This document shows positions 5,062 through 47,274 of a stretch of DNA of 64,000 nucleotides, piece after piece. Origin of the DNA: an uncultured Gammaproteobacteria bacterium (GTDB lineage: Bacteria > Patescibacteriota > Microgenomatia > UBA10105 > UBA927); the NCBI GenBank assembly GCA_964621305.1, contig CAZUOM010000001.1, positions 229,448 through 293,447 on the forward strand, read 5' to 3'. Within the stretch, counting starts at the first letter, position 1, and every line of letters starts with the position of its first letter. The notes under the pieces were generated by a model. The model did no database searches. It was not told the DNA's origin and worked only from the letters and a program-made list of their open reading frames with translations. The position numbers and the translations under genes are program-made.

Positions 5062-5320
5062 GATACCCCCAAGCAGTTAATGCCCGCCGCCATGCTTCTT
5101 TTACCCCAGGGCGTAATTTGAGTTTCGCAAATCTGCTCGTAATGTCAGTCATTTTCACGTATCGCCAAACATCACGAAACCGTGCGCTGGTTAAAATCCG
5201 CGACATCATCCAAGTCCTTTCCGTCTCATTGTTTCCATGCAAAATCCGCCGTACATCAGCCTCAGTTAAATCATAGTCCCACAGAAAATATGGGCGCTTG
5301 CCCCTGGTTTTTTGCTTCAT
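5045..5320 (-). CDS. small hypothetical protein, possible cognate antitoxin of adjacent AbiEii
   Basis: 91-aa ORF overlapping the AbiEii start by 17 nt (operon position of an antitoxin). No recognisable wHTH, so this is assigned by position only. Confidence 0.3.
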   Translation of the reverse strand: MKQKTRGKRPYFLWDYDLTEADVRRILHGNNETERTWMMSRILTSARFRDVWRYVKMTDITSRFAKLKLRPGVKEAWRRALTAWGYHVSSS

Positions 5321-5592
5321 AACGGCATTGTATCACCAATTTCCTATGCGCCTCAACTCCGATACACCATAGTTGCTATTTTACCCATCTTTTGTTAAAC
5401 TAATCGCCTTTGCTCGTTGACAATTTCACCTGCTCTACCAAAAGTATTTGGCTGATGGAATAGTGAACGTACTATCCTTTATGTTCAGTTCACCATCAGT
5501 CAAACTCAAATCGTGGAGGTGAATAAAAGATAAACGAAAATTACCTATCGGTACAAAAATCCACACGTGCACGACTTTCCAAGGAGAAAATC

Positions 5593-10048: not shown

Positions 10049-10641
10049 AGTCGTGCGTCAAGAAAAACAAGGAGTTTTTTGCTCCCAAAAAGACGGGCAA
10101 AGCGCATCAGTTTTCCTTTCCTGATGCGACTCAGATGTAATCGGTCGTTTTGGGATTTTTCTACCCGCATCACAAAATACAGATAATCAACCAATGCCTT
10201 TTCCGGCTCTGCCATAAGGAAAGACCGTTGTTCCTTTTTTTGGAGAACATAGCCGGTATACGCTTTTGGCTGGATAGACCGATACGAGTAGGCAATGCCA
10301 TTGACGGCAAAGAGTCGGGTCGGTTTCGTGGTAGCGGAGGTGACGGTGTAGGGCATTTCCGGGAGAATCTGCCAGTAGGCCAGCGCATATTCAAAAGAAA
10401 TGTACGAAGGCTGATAGAGACGATTGGCTATTTCCTCCTCTGCCGGAGGGTCGGTTTGCAGCCCGTAGAGCCCTTTTTTCAGACGAACAAAGAGGCCCTC
10501 CCGGGTCTGACGTTCCAGAAAATATTTCGCCCGGTGGGAGTGCGTCTCAAAAATCCGTTCAAATTCGAGCCGAGAAACGATCCGTATCCCGCGCCTGACC
10601 AATGCTTCCCTCACATGTATTGGTTTCAGTAAAGTATACAT
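10045..10641 (-). CDS. AbiEi-family antitoxin / transcriptional regulator
   Basis: 198 aa, stop overlaps the AbiEii start (ATGA). 'YISFEYALAYWQIL' and N-terminal HTH-like region are typical of AbiEi. Confidence 0.6.
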   Translation of the reverse strand: MYTLLKPIHVREALVRRGIRIVSRLEFERIFETHSHRAKYFLERQTREGLFVRLKKGLYGLQTDPPAEEEIANRLYQPSYISFEYALAYWQILPEMPYTVTSATTKPTRLFAVNGIAYSYRSIQPKAYTGYVLQKKEQRSFLMAEPEKALVDYLYFVMRVEKSQNDRLHLSRIRKGKLMRFARLFGSKKLLVFLDARL

Positions 10642-13543: not shown

Positions 13544-14131
13544 ATGGATCAACCAACAACAACAGCCAATCCGCCAGTAACCTCCTCCGGCATTGACCGT
13601 GACGAAGGAAGGACCCGCTGGTATGTGGTCCATACTTACTCCGGCCACGAGAACAAAGTCGCGGCAAATCTTAAGCAGCGCATCGAAACGATGAAGCTTG
13701 CTGATAAAATCTTTGACGTTGTCGTTCCTACAAGGAACATCATCCAGGTCAAGCGAGGTAAAAAAGAAGAAATCAAGGAAAAAATTTTCCCAGGATATAT
13801 TTTGGTAAAAATGGTTTTGGAAGACGACTCCTGGCTCGCTGTCCGGACAACCCAAGGAGTCACGGCTTTCGTCGGTGCCGGCAACAAACCCACCCCAATT
13901 TCCCAAAAGGAAGTGGATACCATCCTCAAGTTTATGGCCCTGGAAGCGCCAACCTATAAGACCAGCTACTCTATGGGTGAAGCCGTCAAAATCATCGATG
14001 GACCGTTTGCGGACTTTCTGGGTTCAGTCAACTCCATTGATGAAACCCGAGGCAAGCTTAAAATCCTCGTCTCGATTTTCGGTAGGGAAACACCAGTGGA
14101 ACTGGATTTTCTCCAAGTATCTAAGCTCTAA
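13544..14131 (+). CDS. nusG: transcription termination/antitermination factor NusG
   Basis: 'WYVVHTYSGHENKV' NGN domain start, KOW-like C-terminus. Confidence 0.9.
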   Translation: MDQPTTTANPPVTSSGIDRDEGRTRWYVVHTYSGHENKVAANLKQRIETMKLADKIFDVVVPTRNIIQVKRGKKEEIKEKIFPGYILVKMVLEDDSWLAVRTTQGVTAFVGAGNKPTPISQKEVDTILKFMALEAPTYKTSYSMGEAVKIIDGPFADFLGSVNSIDETRGKLKILVSIFGRETPVELDFLQVSKL

Positions 14132-14809: not shown

Positions 14810-15673
14810 ATGGGTAAAATTCGTGTAGCTACACTCGGCAGTGAAGAAGAAAAAGAACAACGTCGCAGAGCCGGCGCCCGTCGCCAGACCAAGAAGTCTA
14901 AAAAGGACAAGGTCGAAGGCGTCGGGCTCCATGGCGGCGAGCGCACGGTGGTGATGGAGGGAGCTGAGCTTAAGCCCGAGATAAAACGTTTGGTTGAGGA
15001 AGTAGAAAGTGGAGTGCAGCCAGCAGTCAACAGCCAGCAGTCAACAAAACTGAAAAAAAAGAAACAAGCAAAACCCAAATCCAGACGCTATCAGGAAGCG
15101 GCAAAACTTGTTGATCGCACCAAGCTCTACCTAGTTTCCTCCGCCATTGATCTGGTCAAAAAAACGTCGCTGACCAGATTCGACGGCACAGTCGAGCTCT
15201 CAGTCAACCTCAACGCCGAGTCGTTGGGCGAAAACAAGGCCCTGCGCGGGTCCGCAAGGCTCCCACATTCGATGGGTAAAACCATCCGCGTGGCCATCGC
15301 CGATGATGAGCTTTTGGGTAAAATTGAAAAGGGGGCAATAGATTTTGACATCCTTGTTGCCGCGCCTGCCATGATGCCCAAATTAGCCAAATTTGCCAAA
15401 ATCCTGGGCCCCAAGGGCCTGATGCCCAATCCCAAAAACGGGACCATTGGCGAGGACACAGAGAAACTTGCCGCAAGTTTTGCCAGAGGCGAGATCCACT
15501 TCAAAACCGAGCCGGACCAACCTATTCTCCACTTGGTCGTGGGCAAAGTATCCCAGCCGGAAAAAGAACTGGCAGAAAATGTGGAGGCGTATCTGTCCGC
15601 CATCGGTCCTTCAAAAATTCTCAAGGCCACTCTTTCTGCGACCATGGGACCGGGGGTGAAGGTGAAAATATAA
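14810..15673 (+). CDS. rplA: 50S ribosomal protein L1 (with about 90-aa Lys/Arg-rich N-terminal extension or mis-called start)
   Basis: From 'KPKSRRYQEAAKLVDRTKLY' onward it matches canonical L1. The upstream 90 codons are K/R/E-rich and contain a 15-bp tandem duplication (agccagcagtcaaca x2 at about 15016..15045). No RBS at 14810. Confidence 0.8.
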   Translation: MGKIRVATLGSEEEKEQRRRAGARRQTKKSKKDKVEGVGLHGGERTVVMEGAELKPEIKRLVEEVESGVQPAVNSQQSTKLKKKKQAKPKSRRYQEAAKLVDRTKLYLVSSAIDLVKKTSLTRFDGTVELSVNLNAESLGENKALRGSARLPHSMGKTIRVAIADDELLGKIEKGAIDFDILVAAPAMMPKLAKFAKILGPKGLMPNPKNGTIGEDTEKLAASFARGEIHFKTEPDQPILHLVVGKVSQPEKELAENVEAYLSAIGPSKILKATLSATMGPGVKVKI

Positions 15674-16383
15674 TAAACTACCCAGAATGCGAAGGTGCTC
15701 CTCGATATGTATGATATAGATCAAAAGTATACGCAAATGGATACACCCTGGGATAAAGGACTGATGGGTGGATTAGTCCAAAAACCCAAAGCGTATCAGA
15801 AGTCAAACTCGGCGAGAAACAAATCAATTGTTCACCAAAAAAACTTTCACCATCATCTTTATAGCGGACAACACTCAAATACACGCCTTTTGTTGCTGTC
15901 GGGAAGAAGTAATGCTCTTCTTGATTGGATTCGATATAGGCTGCAACACTTGCTGTATTTTGTTCCTCACCCGGTATACCTAGCCGGAGAAGAATCATAT
16001 TGCGAGCGACAACATCTTCTGGTGAATACCGAAGAAGCCATTTGATGCCATGGCTTCCTGGCTGATAAAATTCTTCTAGACTCGTCCCAACAATGCGTTC
16101 ATTGAGTGCCCATAGGAGATCCGATTGTAATATCGACCGATATCCCTATTGGAAGAGCTTTTGGAAATAGATGCCGAACATCCCTAGGAATAACTACCGG
16201 CGCCCTGATGCGCTGTGTTTCAAATTCGCCAATTGTATTGGTCATATTCATTAATAATTGTATAGTTTTTTGCTATAAGATTTCAATAGCGTCCAAAAAT
16301 TAGCCGATGGGAAAACTATCAAACGCGCGACAGTGACCCTCTCTTCTACCACTAGCCCGGGGGAGAAAGTGATATTTGGGTAA

Positions 16384-17013
16384 CTACGATGCCAACAAGA
16401 GCTTCTTACGCTTGCTCCAAGCGTACTCGTTTATTCCAAGTTCCGGAATTTTTTTCGTTTCCCAGATCAGACTTGTAATTTCATTCTGGAGCGGCTGCAT
16501 GGGCAGTTGGGCAACCAGAAGCGACAGGATGTCCAAGCGGTCTTTCTGACCTTTGGCTGTCAGCTTCCGCTGGCCGTACACATAACCTTTAAGCGCGAGC
16601 AACACATCAACCGTGGGGACAACAAAAGTATCAATAGTGTGTGTTTTTTTCAAAACATCCTCAACCGGCATCCCGATACTGCTCCAATGAGGCAGGTATA
16701 TATCAATGGAAGCCATATCGTCCAGCGCCTCGTATTTTTTGAGCCGTTCGTTTTTGACAACAGGATAACGTTTTTTCAGCTTTTCCAGTTGGTCGTAGGA
16801 GACGATGATATCGATATCCTTGGATTTAAGCGCTTTGGTATAAAGCCACACTGCCCAACCGCCGATGAGGACAAACGTAACTGCCCGCTTCAGATCCTGG
16901 AGCGTCTGCCAGCTTTTGGCAGTGATAATATCGTTATAAAAATCCATAGGCGTGCTCTTTGAGCGCACGGAAGTAATCCGTCGCATACCAATCGGACAAG
17001 TTCCAAAGGTCAA
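16384..17013 (-). CDS. minimal nucleotidyltransferase-fold protein (AbiEii/MNT-like putative toxin)
   Basis: 'VLIGGWAVWLYTKALKSKDIDIIV' = GG...DxD polymerase-beta NTase motif. The real start is probably Met-23 (about 16947), overlapping the upstream HTH gene stop. Confidence 0.5.
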   Translation of the reverse strand: MTFGTCPIGMRRITSVRSKSTPMDFYNDIITAKSWQTLQDLKRAVTFVLIGGWAVWLYTKALKSKDIDIIVSYDQLEKLKKRYPVVKNERLKKYEALDDMASIDIYLPHWSSIGMPVEDVLKKTHTIDTFVVPTVDVLLALKGYVYGQRKLTAKGQKDRLDILSLLVAQLPMQPLQNEITSLIWETKKIPELGINEYAWSKRKKLLLAS

Positions 17014-17503
17014 CCAGCGTCTGGGACACAGGGGTGACGTTACCTGTTAAATACGGGTCCGGACGAAGGACAAAAAGATTGGCCGGGCCGGGTGCTTTGG
17101 GAAACCGCACCTTGAGCGCTTCTGTCCCGTACACGTACACTTTATCATAGTCAGCAGGAGCAGAGCCCAGATGAATGCGCACGGCGCTATAACAGCCGTA
17201 AACGGCGTGGGCATCCATGAGTCCCTCGATTTCGGCAACTGAAAAAGGGGCGCGCGTTGCGTATATAATGTCCCTAGAAAGATTACGGTGCGTGGCCCAG
17301 AAATAGAGGAGTTTTTCGGCATTTGTAAGACGAAAATTTCTCCCGGTAACCACTACCGCGCCAAGTTCCCTTAATGGGGATAGGGCGGAAAATACAGTGC
17401 TGGTGCTCATGCCAAACTGCTCGGCGAGCTTCTTTTGCTCAAACACCGGATGCTTCACCCCGGCCTCTAGGATTTCCCTCCAGATGATTTCGATTTTCTT
17501 CAT
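16934..17503 (-). CDS. HTH-domain protein (AbiEi-like putative antitoxin/regulator)
   Basis: N-terminal wHTH-like 'KKLAEQFGMSTSTVFSALSPLRELG'. Sits upstream of and overlapping the NTase gene, which is the AbiE architecture. Confidence 0.45.
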   Translation of the reverse strand: MKKIEIIWREILEAGVKHPVFEQKKLAEQFGMSTSTVFSALSPLRELGAVVVTGRNFRLTNAEKLLYFWATHRNLSRDIIYATRAPFSVAEIEGLMDAHAVYGCYSAVRIHLGSAPADYDKVYVYGTEALKVRFPKAPGPANLFVLRPDPYLTGNVTPVSQTLVDLWNLSDWYATDYFRALKEHAYGFL

Positions 17504-17756
17504 GCGTTTTTTCTCTCTTTTCGAATATAATCGAAAAGAGCAGCCTTGTCAAATCCTTACACGCCACCTCTCCCCCACCATAACGTAAGGCTATAGCCCA
17601 CCTGGGCTGCGCAAGCGAACACCAATGGGCAATTTTTATTACTTGCAGAATGGCCACGTTTATGAGATACTCTTTTTATCCTAAAGACCGTAGGTTCCGG
17701 TTATCAAGCGGAAGACCGCTTCAGCCGGATTAAAATCCTACCGAGGGAAAATTTAT

Positions 17757-17868
17757 ATTGTTACATTGCTGCGTTGTCACATTGTTAACGAACAATCCAG
17801 AATGTAGCCTTTCCCTCGCATCATGCGAGGTTTTTTATTTTTAACAATTTAACAATTTAACAATTTTT
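17757..17868. promoter_or_regulatory. AT-rich composite motif copy A (TTGTTACATTGCT...ACATTGTTAA...TTAACAATTTAACAATTTAACAAT) in rplJ upstream region
   Basis: Shares submotifs with 32581..32643 and 42078..42150. Lies between divergent gene starts. Confidence 0.5.
17813..17842 (+). terminator. hairpin cctcgcatcatgcgagg + T6AT5 (rplJ leader attenuator/terminator-like)
   Basis: Near-perfect palindrome followed by ttttttattttt, 30 nt upstream of the rplJ start. Confidence 0.5.
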
Positions 17869-17872
17869 CAAT

Positions 17873-18388
17873 ATGCCAACACAGAAAAAAATCGACACCG
17901 TCACTGATTTAACCGAAAAGCTTGCAAGAGCCAAGTCAGTCATGCTGACTGACTATCGCGGTTTAAAGCATAAACAGATGGAGGAGCTAAGGGGTGCGCT
18001 CAAAAAGGCCAATGCTGACTTTATGGTTGCTAAAAATCGGCTGTTTCTGCGCGCCCTTGGTAGTAAAGCAAAATCACTTAAAGAATATCTTAAGGATACA
18101 ACTGCAATCCTTTTTTCCTATGCAGATGGCGTCGCCCCACTCAAAGAACTCGTTAAATATTTCAAAGCAGCCGGTGTGGGCAAAACCAAAATTGGCCTTG
18201 TGGAAGGCCGGATGCTTTTAGAAGATGACCTCCTGCGATTGTCTACCTTGCCAACCCGTGACGTCTTGCTCTCACAGCTCGCTAGACAACTCAATGCCCC
18301 AATCCAAGGCTTACATTACACGCTCTCGCGGAATGTGAGAAGGCTGTTATACGCCTTGCAACAAATCCAAAAATCAAAATCCAAATGA
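17873..18388 (+). CDS. rplJ: 50S ribosomal protein L10
   Basis: 'KKIDTVTDLTEKLARAKSVMLTDYRGLKHKQMEELR' canonical L10. Confidence 0.85.
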   Translation: MPTQKKIDTVTDLTEKLARAKSVMLTDYRGLKHKQMEELRGALKKANADFMVAKNRLFLRALGSKAKSLKEYLKDTTAILFSYADGVAPLKELVKYFKAAGVGKTKIGLVEGRMLLEDDLLRLSTLPTRDVLLSQLARQLNAPIQGLHYTLSRNVRRLLYALQQIQKSKSK

Positions 18389-18882: not shown

Positions 18883-19578
18883 CTATGTGTCTTGACCATC
18901 AATACTCATTGTATAAATAAATTCACTATCTCCCGCCTGGGATACAAAAGATTCATAGGACAAATGCGGATTCTTCCGAGAAAAGTAAGAAAGGATTTCA
19001 GTGGTAGACAGCCACATCGTCTTACGGCGACCAAGATAATCTAAATAAGACGAAGGCTGCTCTGACAACATTTCCAAGGGGACCCCTTGCAAAGCTAATG
19101 GGTTGCGATGAATATAGCGGGATAGATGCTGGAGCTGTTCATCGGTTGTGACCAGAACTGCTTTATAAACACCTTGATACAGCGGCCCTACCCGTTTATT
19201 TTTCCTATTAAAATACATCGTATATCGAGTGCATAACGAGTTCATAAATGTATCGACAGCTGTTCCCTCCTTCTGTTTGACTAAAAGATGAAAATGGTTC
19301 GGCATGAGACAGTAAGCAAAAAGACGTATCGAGCCAAAAAAATTGTTGAGTTGAAGTGATTTGAGAATCTTATGTTTCTCTTTTGAAGAAACGGTCGGGT
19401 CGGCCAAACGACTACGAAGAGACTTTTTGTCTTTCTGTAGAAGATATTCTTTCAGATACGACAAAAATACACTATAGTCTTGGGCATCTTGAAAGATAAT
19501 CCGCTTCTCTACTCCGCGATTGTAAATATGGTAATACCCATTGGTAACGTAAAGCTTTTCAGAGTTTTTTGCAGGCAT
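18883..19578 (-). CDS. REP-associated tyrosine transposase (IS200/IS605-like Y1 HUH transposase, RAYT), paralog 1
   Basis: 'YHIYNRGVEKRIIF' and HUH motif 'MPNHFHLL'. Flanked by REP type 1 palindromes, with one more inside the CDS (encoding ALQGVPLEM). Confidence 0.7.
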   Translation of the reverse strand: MPAKNSEKLYVTNGYYHIYNRGVEKRIIFQDAQDYSVFLSYLKEYLLQKDKKSLRSRLADPTVSSKEKHKILKSLQLNNFFGSIRLFAYCLMPNHFHLLVKQKEGTAVDTFMNSLCTRYTMYFNRKNKRVGPLYQGVYKAVLVTTDEQLQHLSRYIHRNPLALQGVPLEMLSEQPSSYLDYLGRRKTMWLSTTEILSYFSRKNPHLSYESFVSQAGDSEFIYTMSIDGQDT

Positions 19579-21880: not shown

Positions 21881-22387
21881 TTATTTTGGCAATCCAATGG
21901 TAGACAGGGACGCATTGGTATACTCGCTCTGACCCGAAACTTCGCGACCAAACCAGTCCGGCGGAATAAAATCGTGTGCGTCATTAAGAGAGGCAAATTC
22001 GACTTCAACTGTTGCAAGCTCCGCCAGATTCCCTGCATAAATATCCAATTGCGCCGTGGCTCCCGATTCAATTGGTATCATATAGCGGCATTTCGTGAGG
22101 CGCTTGCCTTCTGTCAGAGGCCAGAGTTTTTCAAACTGATCACGGGACAATATAACTTCCGTTTCCGGGTGTTCTATGCCGGTTCCGGACTTTACCGTCA
22201 AAAACCACATCTGATGTTCCCCTTCTTTTACATGGCGAAGCCTAAAAACGGACTCCTGGGAAATTGCGATATAGCCCTGGGATATTTCCTGATAAACAAC
22301 AGCATCAAGTCCCTCTGGTATATCCCGAACTAAAAATTTCCGCTCGATTTCTACGTTACTCATACGATTGAATTCTATAGATTTCAT
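21881..22387 (-). CDS. CYTH-domain protein (CyaB/thiamine-triphosphatase-like triphosphate tunnel metalloenzyme)
   Basis: N-terminal 'EIERKFLV' is the CYTH signature. 168 aa. Confidence 0.75.
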   Translation of the reverse strand: MKSIEFNRMSNVEIERKFLVRDIPEGLDAVVYQEISQGYIAISQESVFRLRHVKEGEHQMWFLTVKSGTGIEHPETEVILSRDQFEKLWPLTEGKRLTKCRYMIPIESGATAQLDIYAGNLAELATVEVEFASLNDAHDFIPPDWFGREVSGQSEYTNASLSTIGLPK

Positions 22388-22956: not shown

Positions 22957-24618
22957 TCAAATTCCTATGGGCCTATCCGGCAGAGATTCTATCGCATGCG
23001 CTAGCGACGGCGCTTTTGTAAACCATCGAGCGGCAAGGGCACGCTTGGTTTCTCCAACAAGCGCGCTCAACTTCTCCCTCCCCAGCGCATCAACTACCGC
23101 CTGAAAATAGCGCACTTCCGGTGTTTTTTGCAGCTCGGCAACAAGTTCGTCTGCGTTGACTGGTTTGGCGACATGCGGCCCCATAGCCATAGTAAGATAC
23201 GCTGCCACCGTATCGGCGTAGTGTTCCTCTTCAAACTGGAGAGCCGCCCGGATTAATTCCTCCTGATCACCTTCCGAAAGCCTTCCTGTATAATCGCCAT
23301 CAACCACAAGTTTCATACAGTAAAATCCCGTACGGCGCGCCACGGCATCAATTGCCTGCAACGGATTTTTATACTTGATCCCCTGCATAATCATGCCTCT
23401 GTATAACTCCACAGCTTGTCCGGCAATCGGATCAAGACGGCTTAATATGTCCACCAACCGCCCAATCCGCTCCTCGACAAGATAGGACAAAAGCATTTCG
23501 CTAAACTCGTCACTAAGAAACCTGCTAAATTTCCCCACCCAAGGAAGAAGAAAGTACCGCTCGCCCATGTCAAACATTGACTTCCTAGAATCATTCCATA
23601 ATAACTGCGGCAAACCATCTATGTCTATGCAACTTTTGTCCGCTACACATTGCAAAACAGTACTTTGAAATGAGTTTCCTTTTAGGGAAGGATCAAGCGA
23701 AACCATAGTTTTTATCCCCCGAGCGTGCGCCTCCCACCTGGCTGACAACAGCCGCGGTAATGTAGAAACATGAACGAGCTGTAAAACTCGCGGATACCGT
23801 ACAAAAAGGCTCATCGCGTGAGACAATTCATGAGCAACAATAAACGTAGTGATAAACTGTTTCTGTTCCGGAATCGTCGCCTGTTCATAATACCTTAAGA
23901 TTTCGTCCTCCCGATCGACATGAATTTCCCGTAGAGGAGAATTATAACCAGCAGCCCGATCAGCAGTCACTTCTCCCAAAACGATGTCAACCGGCACAGG
24001 AGAAACGCGGCGTACATCGGAAATCCCCCGGCGAAGCCGAGGTTGAGGAGGTCCATCGACCGGATCTTTATCCCGGACATTAGGCTCCTGAAACTTATTG
24101 CCAACTTTATTCCAAAGATTGAGCACAGCATCAATCGGATAAGCTTTCGCTGTTTTGTCTTTTGATAATTTTGTCACCTCCATCACTGCCTGATTGAAAA
24201 TCGTCCGCGCTGACTGAGGTGTTAATTTGTGCGTTTGGTCATTAGAGATAGTCTGGCCAATTAAATCTATAGTTCCTTTCAATATCTTCAGATCAACAAT
24301 CGCTGGAAGATAGAGTTCTCTTTGTGGCAGATCAACCACAAAGGTAAAATCTGGATGAGGAAATAATTTGCTCATGTCCGGAAAACCAGACATGCTGGCG
24401 ACAAACGCTTCACAAGATGCATAAGCTGACTGGATATTTGTCCACAAGCGCTCAAACTCCTCCCTGTCCACTCTGCTAAACCACTGGCCTATACCATACC
24501 ACACTGCCTGTGCAGCTTCTTGGACCTGTTTTGAAGCTGAAGCGGCTGTCCCAACAGCAATGCCGCCGCCTACTGCTGCACTCATTTTAAGAAATTCCCG
24601 ACGGTTCAGATCGTCCAT
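22957..24618 (-). CDS. Tat-signal secreted protein with HExxH (putative zinc metalloprotease)
   Basis: N-terminal 'RREFLKMSAAVGGGIAVGTAASA' twin-arginine signal. Internal 'VAHELSHAMS' HExxH. 553 aa. Confidence 0.5.
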   Translation of the reverse strand: MDDLNRREFLKMSAAVGGGIAVGTAASASKQVQEAAQAVWYGIGQWFSRVDREEFERLWTNIQSAYASCEAFVASMSGFPDMSKLFPHPDFTFVVDLPQRELYLPAIVDLKILKGTIDLIGQTISNDQTHKLTPQSARTIFNQAVMEVTKLSKDKTAKAYPIDAVLNLWNKVGNKFQEPNVRDKDPVDGPPQPRLRRGISDVRRVSPVPVDIVLGEVTADRAAGYNSPLREIHVDREDEILRYYEQATIPEQKQFITTFIVAHELSHAMSLFVRYPRVLQLVHVSTLPRLLSARWEAHARGIKTMVSLDPSLKGNSFQSTVLQCVADKSCIDIDGLPQLLWNDSRKSMFDMGERYFLLPWVGKFSRFLSDEFSEMLLSYLVEERIGRLVDILSRLDPIAGQAVELYRGMIMQGIKYKNPLQAIDAVARRTGFYCMKLVVDGDYTGRLSEGDQEELIRAALQFEEEHYADTVAAYLTMAMGPHVAKPVNADELVAELQKTPEVRYFQAVVDALGREKLSALVGETKRALAARWFTKAPSLAHAIESLPDRPIGI

Positions 24619-25024: not shown

Positions 25025-25981
25025 TTAAAGGAACTGCTTGAGTAATTTTTTTGCCGTATTTTTTATCACTGGGCTGACAACTACTTCCACAACCCCCTCC
25101 CCAGGCTGGCCGTAGTAGACGATCGCGCCTTCAGGCGCGTGTACCACTACCGGAAGAGCAAGAAGGTCCTCCTCTCCTTTGACAATGAGGAGGGTAGGCC
25201 TGCAATGGGTAGCCCAGGCAGCAATTGCTGTCTGCGCCGTACTGCTAATATAGCCCGGTCCGCTTTCAACAGCCATACTATAATACAAAAGGATCTCTGG
25301 AACTTTTGCCAGAGTGTCGTGAATTTTACGGGCAATATGCAGGTCTATAATGGATAAATTCGGAATACTACCAAGCCCCAAGGCCGTCTCCGTGGTGGCG
25401 TCGCCCACGGTAATTGTGATAGCAGCCGTTGGCTGAAGCGCTTTGTCAATAGCCTTACCCGTCAGCACCCTTCCTAGGGGCCTCCTTAGCTCTGGACGAA
25501 GGCTATCTGGCAATATCAGCTTTCCAAACGCAGTAATCTCACCCCCCCTTATACGTGATGAGGAAATCGGCTGCCCGTCGTCGGCGGCAACGATGGGCAC
25601 CTCGATCAGAGCCACGGGTGACAGGGCGAGACCCTGTCGCAGCTCATTGATACGCTCCCCGGTTGTTCTGTTCTCTGCAGTCACGATGATGGCCGTCAAA
25701 TCCGGCATGCTCGCCGCCGGCTCGTAGGGGTTATCAATAAAAATTATTTTCGCCCGATCAATAAATCCCTGATCAGTCAACCATTGCACAACTGCCTGTT
25801 TCCGTTTTGTTTGGTCATTGTGATTTGTGATTTGTGATTTGTAGGCGCGTATAAACGAATCGCTTGTTACGCCAACCGTTACCCTCTCCCCCTCCTCAAG
25901 CGCCCGGGTTAACAAGGCAATGTGTCCTTTGTGGAGCCCGTCGAAAGTGCCGGCAACAAAGACGTGGGGAAAGCGGTTCAT
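25025..25981 (-). CDS. fusion of archaeal-type phosphopantetheine adenylyltransferase (cytidylyltransferase fold) and DUF359 GTP-dependent dephospho-CoA kinase-like domain
   Basis: N-terminal 'VAGTFDGLHKGHIALL' (T/HxGH nucleotidyltransferase). C-terminal 'LRRPLGRVL...ITVGDATTETALGLGSIPNLSIIDLHIARK...IVKGEEDLLALPVVVHAPEGAIVYYGQPGEGVV' matches remembered DUF359 conserved blocks (VGD...D.K.R, GEEDL, YGQP). Confidence 0.55.
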   Translation of the reverse strand: MNRFPHVFVAGTFDGLHKGHIALLTRALEEGERVTVGVTSDSFIRAYKSQITNHNDQTKRKQAVVQWLTDQGFIDRAKIIFIDNPYEPAASMPDLTAIIVTAENRTTGERINELRQGLALSPVALIEVPIVAADDGQPISSSRIRGGEITAFGKLILPDSLRPELRRPLGRVLTGKAIDKALQPTAAITITVGDATTETALGLGSIPNLSIIDLHIARKIHDTLAKVPEILLYYSMAVESGPGYISSTAQTAIAAWATHCRPTLLIVKGEEDLLALPVVVHAPEGAIVYYGQPGEGVVEVVVSPVIKNTAKKLLKQFL

Positions 25982-26256
25982 GATCGTTGATAGTGATCGT
26001 TTATATCGACAACCTCAATAGTCGCAGGGGTTTTAAAGATAAAAACGGCGCGATATTTTTTGTCAATGCGAAATGAATAAATTTTAAACTCTTTCGGTTC
26101 CAACCTTTCTGTATTCAAGGAGGGGTGTCTGGGATTCGCTAGAAATAGCACCCTTTGCTTTTCAAACTTTCTGATGAGTCCGCGTTTGACCAAAAATTTC
26201 CGCAGGTCCGGCCGAAGGGGTTCAACTTGCATACCAGGAGGATTTCTTGAGACCAC
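25978..26256 (-). CDS. RelE/YoeB-family type II toxin (mRNA interferase)
   Basis: 'KIYSFRIDKKYRAVFIFKTPATIEVVDINDHYQ' fits the RelE/Txe-YoeB C-terminal pattern. Overlaps the upstream RHH gene. Confidence 0.6.
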   Translation of the reverse strand: MVSRNPPGMQVEPLRPDLRKFLVKRGLIRKFEKQRVLFLANPRHPSLNTERLEPKEFKIYSFRIDKKYRAVFIFKTPATIEVVDINDHYQRS

Positions 26257-26485
26257 TTACTACGCTGGTAATAAATTTTTTGTTGTACTTGCCGGTTTTC
26301 TCCATGCCCCTTTTAATTTCTTCAATGGGTCGCCTCTCAAATGCCTCAAACTCCAGATCCTTAAAAAAGTACTTGCGCAGAAGTGCACGGAAAAACTCAC
26401 TCCTTGTCGCAAAGCCACTTTTATGCGTTTCCACATCAACTTGCTGTAAAATCTGGTCTGGGAGAGAAATCGTCAAAGTCGCCAT
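26222..26485 (-). CDS. ribbon-helix-helix (CopG-like) antitoxin
   Basis: 'MATLTISLPDQILQQVD...RSEFFRALLRK' RHH fold signature. Upstream of and overlapping the toxin. Confidence 0.6.
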   Translation of the reverse strand: MATLTISLPDQILQQVDVETHKSGFATRSEFFRALLRKYFFKDLEFEAFERRPIEEIKRGMEKTGKYNKKFITSVVSGLKKSSWYAS

Positions 26486-26536
26486 AATAAGAAATTATAA
26501 CAAAATTTATGAATTTTTGTCAAGACCTGGGGAAAT

Positions 26537-27493
26537 TTACGCATAGGCGACGTGTTGGATAAGAGTTTTGGCCCGATTCAGATGATCTTGGGCAAGTACG
26601 ATTTCAAAAGGACTCCGATCGTTTATGCACCAAAACTCCCCGGTTCCGATATATTTTTGCATACCATCCAGAAAGATTTGCTCATCGTATTGTCCGACCG
26701 TTATGCGATTTGCGGCAAGTTGAACTAAAGCAGCTTCAACCAGATGCCCGTCATTGTGATAAGGATCGCGGTGGCTTAGTGACAATTCGATAATATGCGG
26801 TTTGTTCTCCCGGTCTACATATACCACGTCAAAGGGGTGGGCAACGATAATCCTGCCATCAAAAAAAACGGCTACGCTCTGCTCGAAATAAAGCTTTGTT
26901 GCCTCGTGGGCAACCCGATCAATAGCTGGGGCAAACTGGCGCAGATCAACTCTCACCCCGGCAGGATTCTTGATGACCGTTTCAACCCCCAAGCCAAGCT
27001 GTGTTCCATTCAATCGATTATGAAAATCGTCAAAAAAAGCCGTTAACACGTCTTCTGTCTCATGGCTTTTGGCAAGCTCTCCTCCCAACCGTATGATGGA
27101 ATCCCCAATTGCAAAGGCTTTATTGTGGTGATGACCCATAAAATGAACCAGTGCACCTGTCCTGGCATCTTGGCGGGACATGAGTCCGTCGGTAACGCTG
27201 GTCTTGGTCCACCACTTCCAAAGCATCGTCGCGTAGACAGCCTGTTCTGCCTCGCGACCCAGCTGTTCTGCGTTGGGAAAGAGAACTATTTTTTCCGGCT
27301 TTGGCTTCAGGACTTTTTCTACACGCGACAGTGGGAGAACCCGGAAAGGCTGCGCAATTGGGTGACGACTGTGCCTCGTTCGCCATGATTGTTTTTCAAT
27401 AGCAGCTGCAGCGTCGGCAATATCTTCTGACGAAGGAGGACGTACAGTTTTGCGACGGATCTTATCATCAAACAAAGGATCTTCTGTGCCCAT
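26537..27493 (-). CDS. hypothetical protein
   Basis: 318 aa, His-rich 'HFMGHHHNKAF', no recognised family. Confidence 0.4.
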   Translation of the reverse strand: MGTEDPLFDDKIRRKTVRPPSSEDIADAAAAIEKQSWRTRHSRHPIAQPFRVLPLSRVEKVLKPKPEKIVLFPNAEQLGREAEQAVYATMLWKWWTKTSVTDGLMSRQDARTGALVHFMGHHHNKAFAIGDSIIRLGGELAKSHETEDVLTAFFDDFHNRLNGTQLGLGVETVIKNPAGVRVDLRQFAPAIDRVAHEATKLYFEQSVAVFFDGRIIVAHPFDVVYVDRENKPHIIELSLSHRDPYHNDGHLVEAALVQLAANRITVGQYDEQIFLDGMQKYIGTGEFWCINDRSPFEIVLAQDHLNRAKTLIQHVAYA

Positions 27494-27524
27494 AGGCTGA
27501 TACTACCGATTATATCAGCTTTTC

Positions 27525-28277
27525 GTGTGCAAAGTACGCTACTTGACTCAACTATGGGGCATAGCTATACTACTCCCCCATATGTCAAAAGAAGACAATT
27601 CTCACGATAAATTAGGGGAGATGCAAGCTCATCTGGAAAAAAATCGTGAGACTATTAAAGAGCAGTGTGTCGCCCTCGTCCTCGCAGCAACGGAAGTTGC
27701 CGACTCCATGATCACCAACACGCTATGCTCAGACGATGACAAACAAATCCTAAGCACAGGCATTAGTTACCTTTGGAGTTTTGTCGATAATGATATCGTT
27801 GCGTTTAATGTCTCTCCCCATGTCCCATCTAAAAAAGACAAGCTCCCAAAGTTATTCCCCCGTGAACACCGAGGTGTTGAATTCTCACTGAGCACCAAAG
27901 ACAATACCATCATCTACGTTATGCTCTACGGAGGCATGCGCGATCCAAAGCATCCAGCAGATTATAACGATCGCGACCGACTGCAGCGTCAAGGACATGC
28001 TCCGGCAACCATCGAAACGGTATCGAAGCAAACATTTATCGGTATGAGGCTCGTGAGTGGAAACGGCAGACCATTGACCGAAATTTGGATTACGCACGAA
28101 ACCGGCAGACAATTCCGTCTAAATAGCTTTACGCTCTTTATTCCTAAAAAGAAACACCCATCCGGGGCTTGTCACCCAACACTCCAGTCCAAAGACCAGC
28201 AATTTTCCAATCTTGATAAAAGAACCGGTGCGATAAAAACCGCACTTGCCGACCTGATTCCGAGCGTACCAGAGTAA
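27525..28277 (+). CDS. hypothetical protein
   Basis: 250-aa ORF. Start may be Met-21 (27585). Confidence 0.35.
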   Translation: MCKVRYLTQLWGIAILLPHMSKEDNSHDKLGEMQAHLEKNRETIKEQCVALVLAATEVADSMITNTLCSDDDKQILSTGISYLWSFVDNDIVAFNVSPHVPSKKDKLPKLFPREHRGVEFSLSTKDNTIIYVMLYGGMRDPKHPADYNDRDRLQRQGHAPATIETVSKQTFIGMRLVSGNGRPLTEIWITHETGRQFRLNSFTLFIPKKKHPSGACHPTLQSKDQQFSNLDKRTGAIKTALADLIPSVPE

Positions 28278-28297
28278 TACCATCCACGAGGGGATTT

Positions 28298-29200
28298 TTA
28301 ACGCCGCTCGGGGCAGCCAAATCCGATGCGTTCTCCCACATCGCCGCTAATGATCGTTCGATCCACAAACGCCACCCGGCAGGATCGCTCTGACTGTGGC
28401 AGACGTTCCCACCATGATAAGATCGTCTCGTGATAATCGCGTTGGACGAATCGGGCAAAATCCGCAAGCATCGTGCGGGGAGCGTCGATACCACAATTGC
28501 CACTTAAAAACTGACGCGTCTGATCCGATATGGGTATACCCGCAGGGCATCCGACTGTTTTACCCAAACCCAATTTTCGAAGCATTCCTCTCTCCAGGCC
28601 GCCGGAAGCAGTAATAAGTGCGTAGTTTGACTCGGCAAATAAGCCCGCCGGCAACCCAATGCCCAGAAATGCCTTGGATACATCGCCTAAGGAAACGCGC
28701 GAAAGCTCCACTACTGTTTTTGGATCAAAAGATTCACCCAAGAGTGCAACCAGTTGTACCGTCGCACGCGTACCGGTATGAAGACCCGCGCTCATCTCAG
28801 AGCGCAAATTCAGTCTGTGAAGTACGGCCCGAGATTGATCTGCAACAAGATCATTTGTCAATTCCAACAGATGGCGCGCGTAAGGGTGGATAAACCGTAC
28901 TGCCGCCTCCGGTATCGGTTTACCAAACAGAAACGCTCCCGACTTTTGATCGCCAATTACCTCAAAAATTCGCTGAAAGCTCAAATCCATACTACGCTGA
29001 ATACTCCGTGCATATTCCTTGAGAATAGAGGCTTCATCCTTTGTTGCCGTGAGCTGTTGGGGGTCGAATTGTTTCAAGTGACTACCTTCCCACACTGCCG
29101 CAAATGGGACAGAACCTGCGTCAAGCAAAATTTTATGAAACTCCCACAAAATGCCCGTTGAGTCGGCCAGATACTGATAAAAACGTTTATGACTGTTCAT
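28298..29200 (-). CDS. hypothetical protein
   Basis: 300-aa ORF, no motif recognised. Confidence 0.4.
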   Translation of the reverse strand: MNSHKRFYQYLADSTGILWEFHKILLDAGSVPFAAVWEGSHLKQFDPQQLTATKDEASILKEYARSIQRSMDLSFQRIFEVIGDQKSGAFLFGKPIPEAAVRFIHPYARHLLELTNDLVADQSRAVLHRLNLRSEMSAGLHTGTRATVQLVALLGESFDPKTVVELSRVSLGDVSKAFLGIGLPAGLFAESNYALITASGGLERGMLRKLGLGKTVGCPAGIPISDQTRQFLSGNCGIDAPRTMLADFARFVQRDYHETILSWWERLPQSERSCRVAFVDRTIISGDVGERIGFGCPERR

Positions 29201-29263
29201 CGCTGCATTATATACTATTGTGCTAAAATCGCCTACATGAACGTTGTTGAAGGTGAAAAATTT

Positions 29264-29914
29264 ATGGCGCTTTCTGAAGAAGCTACTATTGGAGACGTCA
29301 ATCAGTTACTGAGGGGATCTTTTGGGGTCGGGATACCGAATACATTAGTTGATCGGTTAGATCTTTCAGCATTTTCATACCAAGTTAAACAAACTAGCCA
29401 AAAACACAGGAAGATGCTCACAATCGTTGGCTGGGACCGGCAGCAGTACGGCTCACCGATATGTGATGCAGTTTCCTGGATACAGTGTATACAGGAAACT
29501 GGTCGTTATCAGATCCGGCAGGTCACCAAAGCATTGGTTATCTCCGGCACTGATCGTACAAGCCATCGTCAGATGAGTCTTTTATATTCCCTTGATAGTC
29601 CGTACGAACTGTTTTACCTTGCGGCGTCTGATCGTTTTCCTTGGGAGGAGCCAGGGGTAGCTCATCCAAACAGTTTAATAGAGACGTGCACAACCGGTAT
29701 GATGTGCCGCACGGATGGGCATACGAGGTTTATCATCTGCCAAAACCGAACATGGGACATTGGTCGCGGTGTTGTCAGCTTCTTTGCACCAGGTATGGAA
29801 AAGTTGGGCTACCGCCTGAACCTAGAAGATACAACCGTTAATCTTTCCTGGGAACCGAATGATCCATGGATAGATCAATCCTGGACCCTCACTATCCCCA
29901 GATACCTCATGTAA
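29264..29914 (+). CDS. hypothetical protein
   Basis: ORF 29189..29914. Preferred start is ATG 29264 after aaggtgaaaaattt. Confidence 0.35.
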   Translation: MALSEEATIGDVNQLLRGSFGVGIPNTLVDRLDLSAFSYQVKQTSQKHRKMLTIVGWDRQQYGSPICDAVSWIQCIQETGRYQIRQVTKALVISGTDRTSHRQMSLLYSLDSPYELFYLAASDRFPWEEPGVAHPNSLIETCTTGMMCRTDGHTRFIICQNRTWDIGRGVVSFFAPGMEKLGYRLNLEDTTVNLSWEPNDPWIDQSWTLTIPRYLM

Positions 29915-30171
29915 CAAATAGAAAACATTTAACTCCGGCTTATTTGGTCGCGAGGAACTCCTTCGGCGTTCGTGCCTGTTGGTATGAGCGCAATGAATTC
30001 GTTTGCTAATGCAATAATTTTTTGATCTGTCGGTTTTCCTTCAGGGTTTTCATACCAGAAAAAGCAAGCTCAAGTATGCAATGCATACAACCCCTACGCC
30101 TTACGTCAAAGTGCCTACTTGTCAACAAAGGTGTTATGGCCTACTATTGAATACACGTATTTCAAGCCCAT

Positions 30172-30843
30172 ATGGATGAAATCAAAACTGAGCACCCAGC
30201 ATCTGCAGAAACCACTTTCAATAAAAAGAAAGATCGTTACCAGATACAAAAAAAGGAAAATGGTACGAAAAATAATTTTAAAAAGTTATCAGAAATATCT
30301 AGTTTGGAAAAACTTGCGATTTCTGAATTTTCGCAACGAGCTGTTTCTTCTGTCATACCCGAGTACTTTGACGATGCCGCCCAAGCTGTCATCACTAACC
30401 TACATAATGTGGATTTGAAGGGCGGTAAGCTGTGGTCTTATCGCACTGCCATAGAACGACTCACAAATTTAAATGGGTTGACAGAGGAGCAGGCAAAATA
30501 TTGCTTCGACTATGGTCGAGCCATTGCAACGATGAAAAAGTACGCACGATTGGCAGCATCGCCTAATTTATTTGATACGAAAGAAGGAAGAGAAGCCAAA
30601 GCAGAAGCGCGCAAATGGTGCGGCATGGCATACGCAGTGGAAAAAGGATATAGTCTTCCGGACTATGTGAGAAGCGCACGATCAATGCTTGCTGCTTTAC
30701 TCCCCACCTCGCCAGTTTCGAAACAAGCCCTTCAGGGACTGCGCAAACGCATGGAGGCGTGTTTTAGAGACAATAAAAATTGTCAGCGACTCCGAACCAT
30801 TGTTGGCCTTAATTCCTCTGCAACTCCGAAACGCGCCTCATGA
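30172..30843 (+). CDS. hypothetical protein
   Basis: 223-aa ORF, no motif recognised. Confidence 0.35.
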   Translation: MDEIKTEHPASAETTFNKKKDRYQIQKKENGTKNNFKKLSEISSLEKLAISEFSQRAVSSVIPEYFDDAAQAVITNLHNVDLKGGKLWSYRTAIERLTNLNGLTEEQAKYCFDYGRAIATMKKYARLAASPNLFDTKEGREAKAEARKWCGMAYAVEKGYSLPDYVRSARSMLAALLPTSPVSKQALQGLRKRMEACFRDNKNCQRLRTIVGLNSSATPKRAS

Positions 30844-31237
30844 GGTCAAGTTGGTAGCTGATATCCATTGCGTTTCGTCCCCATAGGAAACTATACTCCG
30901 TGGTTGCTGTTTCCCAAACATGCGGGCCTGGATCGGATACATCTGCGGCAATTTCGAACAGTCTTGTTGGTTCTGAGACGTGGAGCCTGCCGGTTTTGGC
31001 ATCAACCATCGCAACCAACTCGATGCCACGGAGGATATCTTCCCGTCGAAAGCCCGCCTCCATGGTTTTTTGTTCATATGGCTGGACTGACCCATCGGAG
31101 AGGAATACTGCAGCTGTCCCTGGAGTGAGCCCAAGGGGTGGAACGAACATTATTCCTTCTCTCCGCATGCGGAAAATGACAGCGTAGCCGATGGTTCTGG
31201 GCGCGTGTTCTTCTTCCATGTGGCTACAAGTATACAC
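30809..31237 (-). CDS. hypothetical protein
   Basis: 142-aa ORF. Weak resemblance to DUF296/PPC or PNPOx-like small proteins, not supportable. Confidence 0.3.
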   Translation of the reverse strand: MYTCSHMEEEHAPRTIGYAVIFRMRREGIMFVPPLGLTPGTAAVFLSDGSVQPYEQKTMEAGFRREDILRGIELVAMVDAKTGRLHVSEPTRLFEIAADVSDPGPHVWETATTEYSFLWGRNAMDISYQLDLMRRVSELQRN

Positions 31238-31299: not shown

Positions 31300-31962
31300 A
31301 TGGACGCCCTTGCCCCCTATCTTGACCTAGCCAACCACCACGGAAATGCCACGGCCGTGGACATTAAAAAACTCTGCGCCGACGTCATCACCTACAGCCT
31401 CCACGCGGCGTTTGTGAACCCCTGCTATATTGCTCTTGCCAAAGAAGCGCTTGCCGGACGCGCTCGCGTCGGGACGGCATTTTCTTTTCCGTTAGGACAG
31501 GACACGCTCGCGAGCAAAATATCTACAGCAAATGAACTAGTTCAACTGGGCGCTGACGAGCTGGATGTCGTGCCCAACCTGGGTTTGTTTTTAGGAGGAG
31601 AGACCAACGGGTTCCTGGCTGAAATGAAAGCAGTCGTTGACTCGGCGCGGATGGTGGGAACAGCCGTCATCGTCAAATTCATCATCGAAACCGGCTATAT
31701 GAGCGACGAACAGATTGCCGAGGCTTCTAAGCTGGTCGTTGAAAGCGGCGCGGACTTTGTAAAGATCTGCTCCGGTATGGGGCCACGGGGAGCCAGTGTC
31801 CACGATGTTGAAATAGTTCGACAAGCGGTCGGCCCAAATGTAAAAATCAAAGCCGCCGGAGGAATAGACACACGGGAAGAAGCCGAAGCATTTATAAGGA
31901 CTGGCGCGAGCCGCATCGGCACCAGCCACGCCGTGGAGATTGTCAGAACCAATAGAACATAA
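31300..31962 (+). CDS. deoC: deoxyribose-phosphate aldolase
   Basis: 'FVNPCYIALAKEAL', 'VGTAFSFPLGQ', 'KIKAAGGI' match DeoC class I aldolase. Confidence 0.8.
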   Translation: MDALAPYLDLANHHGNATAVDIKKLCADVITYSLHAAFVNPCYIALAKEALAGRARVGTAFSFPLGQDTLASKISTANELVQLGADELDVVPNLGLFLGGETNGFLAEMKAVVDSARMVGTAVIVKFIIETGYMSDEQIAEASKLVVESGADFVKICSGMGPRGASVHDVEIVRQAVGPNVKIKAAGGIDTREEAEAFIRTGASRIGTSHAVEIVRTNRT

Positions 31963-31977: not shown

Positions 31978-32580
31978 TTAGAGCATTTTTAGGCGGGGAA
32001 TGATGGCGGGGTCCGATATAATTAGTCTGGTCGCACCGGCATCCACAATCATCTTGGCTGAACTTTCGCTGATCCCTTCTTCTGCAGCAATGGTCAAATC
32101 CGGATATGCCTGATGGATGGCGCGGATTTTTTCGACATTTTCCGGCTGGAGCGTGAGGCCCCTGGCGCCCATCTCTGCCATCATCACTAGCACTACGTCG
32201 ATGGTTTCCAAAAACGGCTCGACTGCCTCGACTTCTGTGGCTCCGTCGATGGCCAGACCCACCTCAACGCTCTCTTTTTCTGTCTCATCAAGAAACAGCC
32301 GCGGGTCGTTGGCTTCGACGTGTGCTATCAGGCGTTTGAACCCGGCATCAACCAGCATCCGGATGTATTTTTCGGGGCTAGCGACCATAAGGTGTGCTTC
32401 GAAACTGACTGGTTTGACTAATTGGCCAAATTTGGCTAAGTCCAAAAATGTCTCCGCCGGCACCAGTGAGCCATCGGCGATATCAATCTGCAACCAGTCA
32501 ACGTAGGGAGCAACAATAGCAACTTTGCGCTCAATTGCGTCCCAGTCTTTTTCAAAAATAGTAGGAATGATGCCGATCAT
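31978..32580 (-). CDS. rpe: ribulose-phosphate 3-epimerase
   Basis: 'IIPTIFEKDWDAIE...WLQIDIADGSLVP...HLMV...VLVMMAEMGARGL' follows the Rpe TIM-barrel pattern (IxPSIL..D, DVMDGxFVP, HLMV, MSVxPGFGGQ-like). Confidence 0.7.
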   Translation of the reverse strand: MIGIIPTIFEKDWDAIERKVAIVAPYVDWLQIDIADGSLVPAETFLDLAKFGQLVKPVSFEAHLMVASPEKYIRMLVDAGFKRLIAHVEANDPRLFLDETEKESVEVGLAIDGATEVEAVEPFLETIDVVLVMMAEMGARGLTLQPENVEKIRAIHQAYPDLTIAAEEGISESSAKMIVDAGATRLIISDPAIIPRLKML

Positions 32581-33489: not shown

Positions 33490-34329
33490 TCATTTTTTTC
33501 TAAGTTTCTCTGCCGCATCGGTCGGATCAACAATGTTAACGTTGAGTCCCGTGCCCAGCTCAAAACCGGCCCGATGGATAAAGCGCGGGGTGATCCTTAT
33601 AAACCAGTTGACTCCGTGAAAAATGTAGAAGTTGTAGCCCAACGGGTTACCATTGTGCACATGGGCTAGTTCTGGATCCGAATAGACGGCGGCAACCTTC
33701 TTGATCCCGCTCTGGAGGGCTGCCGCTAGCGCAGGCAGAACCGAATCAGGCGTATCTCCAAAGCGCGTACCCTCGATTTTTGGCGCAATCCACGTTTCAA
33801 ACGGCCACTGAGAAAAATCCGGACAGTAAGTCACCATTGCCTCATCCTCACTAACGACGTTTGCAACTGGCTCCCGGGAGAGGGCGTCCAGATTTATCTG
33901 CCGGGGCACAACAACGAGCTGGCTATGCGGATGGGTGAGGCTTGCTCCGGCGTGAGCACCGTGATTGCAGAAGATAATGACATGCCCGTCTGTCGCATGA
34001 ACGCGGAAGCGATCACGGTAGGCGCGGACGATGTCTATGACCTGTTCCAAAGGGAGATCTTCGATATCCCTCTCGTGATCCGGGCTGTGGATCACCACCT
34101 CATGGGTGTCAGTTATGGGAAATTTGTTGGGAATGACGCGCACCTTCCACCCAGGGCTGTTTGCCGGACCTTCGCCGATTCTATAAGTCTCAAGAGGTGT
34201 TGCCCCTTCCGAACCGTGGCAAAACGGACATGTTGGTTGTTCTTTGGCACCATCACTAGGGCGGCCGGTTCTGCCGGGAACGATAATCACCCAGCGCTGG
34301 GTTTTGATATCGGGTACGTATTTGGCCAT
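33490..34329 (-). CDS. galactose-1-phosphate uridylyltransferase-like (GalT/HIT superfamily) enzyme
   Basis: 'CPFCHGSEG' zinc motif and 'HPHSQ' (HxHxQ) nucleotide-transfer motif. Confidence 0.65.
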   Translation of the reverse strand: MAKYVPDIKTQRWVIIVPGRTGRPSDGAKEQPTCPFCHGSEGATPLETYRIGEGPANSPGWKVRVIPNKFPITDTHEVVIHSPDHERDIEDLPLEQVIDIVRAYRDRFRVHATDGHVIIFCNHGAHAGASLTHPHSQLVVVPRQINLDALSREPVANVVSEDEAMVTYCPDFSQWPFETWIAPKIEGTRFGDTPDSVLPALAAALQSGIKKVAAVYSDPELAHVHNGNPLGYNFYIFHGVNWFIRITPRFIHRAGFELGTGLNVNIVDPTDAAEKLRKK

Positions 34330-47168: not shown

Positions 47169-47274
47169 ATACTTCAAATATAAAATAGAAAAAGAAACGT
47201 GTCTACTACCAACCTGAACTTTCCTTCTTGACAATTTCAAAGTGTACATATAATTATTTCTGTTCGCAGAATGC

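Follow-up and report, generated by a model that had tools for sequence, protein, structure and literature searches.

The last two steps of coenzyme A (CoA) biosynthesis are carried out by a phosphopantetheine adenylyltransferase (PPAT) and a dephospho-CoA kinase (DPCK), and the closest described counterparts of the gene considered here are fusions of these two enzymes in uncultured archaea. DUF359 (arCOG04076) had earlier been singled out as the one gene of the pan-archaeal core that was still uncharacterised (PMC6393860), and it was from PPAT-arCOG04076 fusions in uncultured archaea that the function of the archaeal DPCK was predicted, with biochemical proof following (Shimosaka, Makarova, Koonin & Atomi 2019, PMC6650551); the archaeal DUF359 kinase and the CoaE-type DPCK of bacteria are analogous enzymes (PMC6650551). 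The present work concerns a gene at positions 25025 to 25981, on the minus strand, of a 64,000-nucleotide stretch of contig CAZUOM010000001.1 (the whole of this stretch is referred to below as the window), which in all likelihood encodes a bifunctional CoA synthase built from archaeal enzyme types and belonging to a family of Microgenomates-type bacteria of the candidate phyla radiation (CPR; also called Patescibacteria), both activities being predicted from sequence. No description of a bacterial or CPR branch of the PPAT-DUF359 fusion was found in the searchable open-access literature.

The fusion architecture itself is already known from publication for uncultured archaea. Set beside the archaeal fusions (for example AIF21550.1, from marine group II/III Euryarchaeota) by their published description, the protein has the same two domain families in one polypeptide and the same inferred pair of reactions, while its host is a CPR bacterium. 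Eukaryotic COASY likewise performs the last two CoA steps with one polypeptide, in the order PPAT then DPCK, and the PPAT domain of COASY belongs to the same family as the archaeal-type PPAT. The COASY kinase, however, is a P-loop, CoaE-type, ATP-using enzyme, whereas the kinase of the present protein has the non-homologous DUF359 fold, so that it is a functional analogue and not a member of the COASY family. Bacterial CoaD and CoaE perform the same two reactions but are encoded by separate genes, CoaD being a distant superfamily relative of the protein and CoaE unrelated to it. As judged from its sequence, the protein has the Pfam-level matches and the catalytic residues of both of its families, and departs from their descriptions only in scoring below the equivalog cut-offs and in lacking an archaeal host; the latter departure, from a DUF359 family described as pan-archaeal and archaea-specific, is one of distribution and not of mechanism.

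The listing of open reading frames (ORFs) in the window contains exactly one long frame at 25025..25981, encoding 318 amino acids from an ATG at 25981-25979 to a TAA stop at 25027-25025, and this is a complete gene for the predicted bifunctional PPAT-DPCK, with an architecture shared by more than 120 full-length homologues. The start codon is consistent with the homologues, all of which start 3-5 residues ahead of the VFVAGTFD motif. An earlier sequence-only reading of the window had proposed an archaeal-style fusion of the last two CoA steps in a bacterium and had quoted five motif blocks, and all five are present: GTFDGLHKGH at residues 11-20, ITVGD at 190-194, IDLHIARK at 212-219, IVKGEEDLLALP at 266-277 and YYGQPGEGVV at 289-298. 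Its identification of both domains is supported by the profile matches described below, and its placement of the gene in a bacterium by a host of the CPR/Patescibacteria. An AlphaFold2 model of the protein, built on 43 homologues, has a mean predicted local distance difference test score (pLDDT) of 90.7 and a predicted template modelling score (pTM) of 0.62, and is less confident only around residues 145-170 and in two surface stretches.

The C-terminal half (residues 157-318 and the stop codon, 25025..25513, minus strand) is a DUF359/arCOG04076 DPCK domain, with a thiamine-pyrophosphokinase-like, non-P-loop fold. The sequence-only reading was to be given up if this half failed to match DUF359; Pfam model PF04019 is in fact matched with E=2.8e-27 and 95.3 bits against a gathering score of 25, residues 196-317 aligning with positions 1-125 of the 126 in the model. 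The NCBIfam model NF041125, 'GTP-dependent dephospho-CoA kinase', matches residues 157-316 with E=1e-23, and the nearest solved structure is that of the GTP-dependent DPCK of Thermococcus kodakarensis, TK1697 (EC 2.7.1.237; PDB 8jvc, 8jvf and 8jvg), which is found both in a sequence search of the PDB (8jvc, E=1e-19, 34% identity, residues 159-315) and at the first rank of a Foldseek search with the model, where 8jvc, 8jvg and 8jvf have E values from 1e-13 to 3e-10 and target-normalised template modelling (TM) scores of 0.76-0.80 (8jvc individually E=1.1e-13, identity 28-34%). TK1697 differs in being a standalone protein of about 175 amino acids. Its three functionally important aspartates are kept: by alignment to 8jvc, Asp48 corresponds to Asp194 in the ITVGD block (25400..25402), Asp67 to Asp213 in IDLH (25343..25345) and Asp125 to Asp272 in GEEDL (25166..25168), all on the minus strand and all 100% conserved in the best 120 fused homologues, the set to which the conservation values given below also refer. 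The function of TK1697 in vivo is impaired by D48A and D67A and less so by D125A, and complementation in T. kodakarensis is nearly lost with D48A (Shimosaka et al., PMC6650551). No match to the P-loop kinase CoaE (PF01121) was obtained anywhere in the 318-amino acid protein in the Pfam search at E<=1.

The gene is one member of a large family, which was delimited with two homologue searches, a word-indexed protein search and an exhaustive search of 1.84 billion representatives of 50%-identity clusters. The former returned 373 proteins at E<=1e-5, and in the best 120 of these, without exception, both domains are present, with coverage of about 99% and identity of 44-61%; the names, where given, are 'pantetheine-phosphate adenylyltransferase' of Candidatus Gottesmanbacteria or of 'Patescibacteria group'. 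At E<=1e-3 the exhaustive search gave 3608 matches; 396 clusters remain at E<=1e-30, and nearly all of the top 150 are full-length fusions. A search of genome contigs with the single protein found one true relative, in a Woesebacteria metagenome-assembled genome (61% identity), together with two spurious matches to the N-terminal motif. The family divides into three deep sequence groups, the first containing the present protein, the second carrying Gottesmanbacteria, Microgenomates and Patescibacteria names, and the third including Levybacteria, and the database names given to it are only 'PPAT', 'cytidyltransferase-like' or 'DUF359 domain-containing protein'. Across 257 family members the pairwise distances of the N-terminal and C-terminal domains are correlated (Pearson r=0.81, a value reached in 0 of 200 Mantel permutations), and the two halves are alike in mean pairwise identity, with 44% and 43% respectively. 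Co-divergence combined with equal identities is what is expected if there was one fusion event followed by joint purifying selection on both halves.

These observations bear directly on the strongest competing explanation, an unlikely one, according to which only the PPAT half serves CoA synthesis and the DUF359 half has drifted, having become a kinase for some other nucleotide-containing substrate or a regulatory or oligomerisation module. Such drift would fit the score of the kinase half against the archaeal equivalog models (about 84 bits, where the cut-offs are 300), its identity of 28-34% to 8jvc, and the name that NCBI gives to these proteins, which is only 'pantetheine-phosphate adenylyltransferase'. 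The conservation within the family speaks against it: no change occurs in the three functionally validated aspartates or in the GEEDL, YGQP and SGPG blocks across sets of 120 to 258 family sequences, and the C-terminal domain is conserved as much as the N-terminal domain and diverges with it. In addition, it was by the same reasoning, from a lasting fusion with the dephospho-CoA-producing enzyme, that the DPCK was rightly predicted in archaea.

The N-terminal half (residues 1-156, 25514..25981, minus strand) is a PPAT domain of the archaeal/eukaryotic type (COG1019) with a nucleotidyltransferase, Rossmann-like fold. The sole subfamily model that it matches above its curated cut-off is NF001985, 'pantetheine-phosphate adenylyltransferase', which represents the archaeal-type subfamily PRK00777 (NCBIfam) and is matched with 126.7 bits against a cut-off of 104, residues 3-156 aligning with positions 3-153 of 157. 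The general Pfam model CTP_transf_like (PF01467) matches residues 9-145 (E=1.1e-11, 45.5 bits), and a Thermococcales CoaD model aligns with the domain end to end (E=4e-23). Among solved structures, 3do8 of Archaeoglobus fulgidus is found by sequence (E=2.2e-16, residues 7-156) and stands at the second rank of the Foldseek search (E=7e-9, TM 0.80-0.84, root-mean-square deviation (rmsd) 1.8-2.2 Å), followed by bacterial PPATs. The HxGH nucleotide-binding motif is present as H17-K18-G19-H20 (25922..25933) within the block G11-T-F-D-G-L-H-K-G-H20, in which G11, T12, F13, H17, G19 and H20 are 100% conserved and D14 97%, and the second signature of the superfamily, ISSxR, as I139-S-S-S-R143 (25553..25567), which aligns with ISSTR of 3do8 and in which S140 is 98-100% and R143 99% conserved; both motifs are on the minus strand. 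N112, R115 and D135 are conserved as strongly as these two motifs. Compared with the described members of the family (3do8, TK2128 of T. kodakarensis and the PPAT of Pyrococcus abyssi), the domain passes the family cut-off, aligns end to end, keeps HxGH and ISSxR and superposes with an rmsd as low as 1.8 Å, but it is fused to a DPCK and its host is a bacterium, a kind of organism in which PPAT is usually CoaD (TIGR01510). That bacterial model is matched with 20.1 bits against a cut-off of 103.3, and over residues 9-42 only.

If the N-terminal domain were instead another nucleotidyltransferase, such as an FAD synthase or RibL-like enzyme, a nicotinamide mononucleotide (NMN) adenylyltransferase or a glycerol-3-phosphate cytidylyltransferase, the protein would not combine two consecutive CoA steps. 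The sequence-only reading had regarded a RibL/FAD synthase or a glycerol-3-phosphate cytidylyltransferase as fatal to its proposal, and the models for all of these other enzymes score far below their cut-offs: 17-21 bits against 184-396 for the FAD synthase/RibF models, 21.3 against 27 for Pfam FAD_syn, 29.8 against 165 for the glycerol-3-phosphate cytidylyltransferase (TagD) model, and 14.7 against 127 for the NMN adenylyltransferase model. These sub-threshold matches, with a further one of 35.3 bits to RfaE domain II, are the points in favour of this very improbable alternative, and they reflect the shared HxGH superfamily. Only the PPAT model NF001985 passes its curated cut-off, with the whole domain covered, and the Thermococcales CoaD model also aligns from end to end; the best fold matches after 3do8 are bacterial PPATs; and in two relatives that do carry an NMN adenylyltransferase match (P0258 and P0261), this match lies on a separate N-terminal domain, while the domain beside DUF359 still scores 170-177 bits as a PPAT.

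The two relatives just mentioned are triple fusions, in which an archaeal-type NMN adenylyltransferase precedes the PPAT and the DUF359 DPCK (P0258, 530 amino acids, locus L009, 10001-11593; P0261, 523 amino acids), with 116 and 127 bits respectively to the NMN adenylyltransferase model NF002243 against its cut-off of 127. The gene for P0258 adjoins that of an NAD synthase (PF02540), in a bacterial context that includes BipA. In such a triple fusion a single polypeptide would complete both NAD and CoA. A further relative (P0304, 589 amino acids) is a PPAT-DPCK fusion with an extra PF01182 domain (glucosamine-6-phosphate isomerase/6-phosphogluconolactonase). A 159-amino acid cytidylyltransferase that is a near relative (P0263) was considered as a bacterial CoaD and rejected; it is RfaE-domain-II-like, with 109.7 bits to TIGR02199, and has no match to TIGR01510 at E<=0.001.

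The host is a bacterium of the CPR/Patescibacteria. The window contains nusG (13544-14131), rplK, rplA, rplJ and rplL, the last with a bacterial L7/L12 domain, as well as genes for MreB, Maf, a nucleoside diphosphate kinase, an M16 peptidase, a serpin and several glycosyltransferases, toxin-antitoxin genes and many orphan ORFs; its coding density is 87%, all three stop codons are in use, and its composition is even, with a G+C fraction of 0.43-0.52. In all contexts of relatives that could be read the neighbours are likewise bacterial (rplKAJL-nusG-secE; SecA, bacterial TopoI, GreA and TsaD; BipA; FtsZ-FtsA-MurG-FtsW). In group 1 the order Rpe-DeoC-fusion-GalT-like-MerR, near the ribosomal cluster, is conserved on contigs of 0.44-1.09 Mb that encode proteins only 46-51% identical to the present one, and the persistence of this synteny at such identities argues for long vertical inheritance and against contamination. 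The idea that archaeal DNA was mis-assembled or mis-binned into a bacterial contig, or was transferred very recently, could appeal to the archaeal type of both domains and to a PSI-BLAST search from TK1697 in 2019 that found archaeal sequences only (PMC6650551), but it is effectively refuted by synteny, the gene having the bacterial rplKAJL cluster about 6 kb away within an unbroken 64-kb window of even composition, an identical protein being on record on a 310-kb contig, relatives on contigs of 0.4-1.09 Mb showing the same synteny, and hundreds of clusters being named as CPR bacteria.

Taken as a bifunctional CoA synthase, the protein would act in two steps. The N-terminal domain (residues 1-156) would convert 4'-phosphopantetheine and ATP to dephospho-CoA and pyrophosphate, and the DUF359 domain (residues 157-318) would phosphorylate the 3'-OH of dephospho-CoA to give CoA, probably with GTP as the phosphate donor, by analogy with TK1697 only. 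The end of the A. fulgidus PPAT aligns to residue 156 and residue 9 of the T. kodakarensis DPCK to residue 159, and the two enzymes therefore abut with practically no linker; the length of the junction is fixed at 27 amino acids in 178 of the 257 family members. Given so tight a junction, channelling of the substrate between the domains is plausible. The gene belongs to a large family that is inherited vertically in Microgenomates-type CPR bacteria (Gottesman-, Woese- and Levybacteria), in whose reduced genomes the fusion most likely supplies the terminal, and perhaps the sole, CoA-forming steps, with 4'-phosphopantetheine that would be either salvaged or locally made as substrate. The ORFs of the window that encode 125 amino acids or more include no PanK, CoaBC, CoaE or bacterial CoaD, and replacement of CoaD and CoaE combined with phosphopantetheine salvage is consistent with the lack of further CoA genes both in the window and across about 170 kb of flanking sequence in relatives. 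A nucleoside diphosphate kinase is encoded at 46770-47276 on the minus strand of the window and could, circumstantially, supply GTP for a GTP-dependent DPCK.

Several observations weigh against the assignment of both CoA-forming steps to this protein. The equivalog models for the kinase (NF041125 of Thermococcales and the PRK01160 sub-models) give 83.7, 82.7 and 68.1 bits against cut-offs of 300-324; by sequence the DPCK half is a divergent branch of the Pfam family, outside the lineage-specific equivalogs, and its donor specificity could for this reason differ. The title of 3do8, an entry from structural genomics, is 'protein with unknown function', so that the PPAT assignment is founded on the family models and on genetics in P. 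abyssi and T. kodakarensis cited in PMC6650551. No other CoA-pathway gene stands beside the fusion in the 10 contexts examined, and the neighbourhood consequently gives no independent support for a CoA pathway. The pTM of 0.62, with pLDDT values of 68-77 around residues 145-170, means that the relative orientation of the domains, and with it channelling, is left undefined by the model.

How a bacterial lineage came by a fusion of archaeal enzyme types is a separate question, to which only a tentative answer is offered. It is possible, though doubtful, that a Microgenomates-type CPR ancestor took a pre-fused PPAT-DPCK from archaea, that CoaD and CoaE were displaced by it, and that it was kept as the sole CoA enzyme in genomes of about 1 Mb, phosphopantetheine (or dephospho-CoA) being scavenged from hosts or neighbours and the synthesis finished with GTP. 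In the exhaustive search, the second and third tiers of identity contained no archaeal PPAT-DPCK fusion, the sequences there being again from CPR bacteria, and an artificial query made by joining the A. fulgidus PPAT to the T. kodakarensis DPCK retrieved about 95 standalone DPCKs of Thermococcales together with a small number of standalone proteins that have a PPAT domain (PF01467), and after these CPR fusions, with no archaeal fusion. Because no archaeal fusion sequences were retrieved for a phylogeny, transfer from archaea, and likewise a single transfer, is something that we infer. If the scenario is true, it describes a lineage-defining, archaeal-derived strategy of cofactor salvage, which the fusions of NMN adenylyltransferase, PPAT and DPCK would extend to one enzyme that finishes both NAD and CoA.

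The phyletic picture of DUF359/arCOG04076 is corrected by the existence in bacteria of a large branch, vertically inherited and always fused to an archaeal-type PPAT. The branch also closes an annotation gap, for the final step to CoA may be wrongly recorded as absent in metabolic reconstructions of CPR bacteria that search for CoaE. The family is a clean added case of archaeal-type genes of central metabolism in CPR bacteria and yields a simple, testable hypothesis about the supply of CoA in tiny CPR cells; neither a new mechanism nor a new enzyme class is revealed.

Immediately upstream of the gene lies a probable toxin-antitoxin pair, also on the minus strand, consisting of a ribbon-helix-helix (CopG-type) antitoxin ORF of 87 amino acids (26222..26485; PF01402, E=9.2e-6, 25.9 bits against a gathering score of 20.5) and a RelE/HigB-like toxin ORF of 92 amino acids (25978..26256; PF05015, E=1.3e-5, with 26.0 bits slightly short of the gathering score of 27), whose TGA stop forms an overlapping ATGA with the start codon of the PPAT-DPCK gene. 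Upstream of the antitoxin-toxin-PPAT/DPCK string the only strong promoter candidate is a sigma70-type promoter-like site (TTGACA-18-TATAAT, with TG upstream) at 26494..26523 on the minus strand, which agrees with the consensus at 12 of 12 positions. Promoter-like sites in the region number 5, where 3.7 are expected, and most of them, as well as the predicted intrinsic terminators, occur between 24400 and 26800 at background frequency. From this consensus match the site may act as a promoter, and the cofactor gene may be co-transcribed with the toxin-antitoxin pair from the putative promoter of the pair. The arrangement is seen in the source genome only, other genes standing upstream of the fusion in relatives.

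The synteny of group 1 is interrupted in the window, where DeoC (31300-31962), Rpe (31978-32580) and GalT (33490-34329) lie about 5 kb from the fusion, separated from it by the toxin-antitoxin pair and by ORFs at 26537-31237. These ORFs have no significant Pfam match, a weak one to Urease_beta (E=0.014) being all that was obtained, and in comparison with the loci of three relatives (L005, L006 and L007) they give the impression of orphan genes inserted where the neighbourhood is otherwise conserved. In three relatives of group 2 (L010, L011 and L012) the fusion instead follows a dihydroorotase-like amidohydrolase and precedes a series GT2-GT2-YfhO-GT4-methyltransferase-GT2-GT2, in a neighbourhood bordered by tandem arrays of 4-5 PMT_2/ArnT-like glycosyltransferases. 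In the ribosomal cluster of the window, a gap of about 2.2 kb (15674-17872) between rplA (14810-15673) and rplJ (about 17873-18388) contains three ORFs without family matches, where relatives have only one small ORF.

Two paralogous genes for IS200-like Y1 transposases of 231 amino acids (PF01797) lie about 27 kb apart in opposite orientation, at 18883-19578 on the minus strand and 46049-46744 on the plus strand, and their products have very similar N-termini. Downstream of the fusion, at 22957-24618 on the minus strand, is a gene for an orphan protein of 553 amino acids that has a twin-arginine signal (RREFLK; PF10518, E=2.5e-4), a HELSH motif of the HExxH type and no family match, and that is a candidate secreted metalloprotease. 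At 21881-22387, again on the minus strand, a CYTH-domain (triphosphate tunnel) protein is encoded, with a borderline score of 22.7 bits against 23.2. Serpins are uncommon in bacteria, and that of the window is full length (PF00079, E=1e-90) and occurs at 3184-6717 in a cluster with a PP2C-like phosphatase and a nucleotidyltransferase toxin of the AbiEii family, a second AbiEii gene being located at 9332-10048, within the region 9332-10641.

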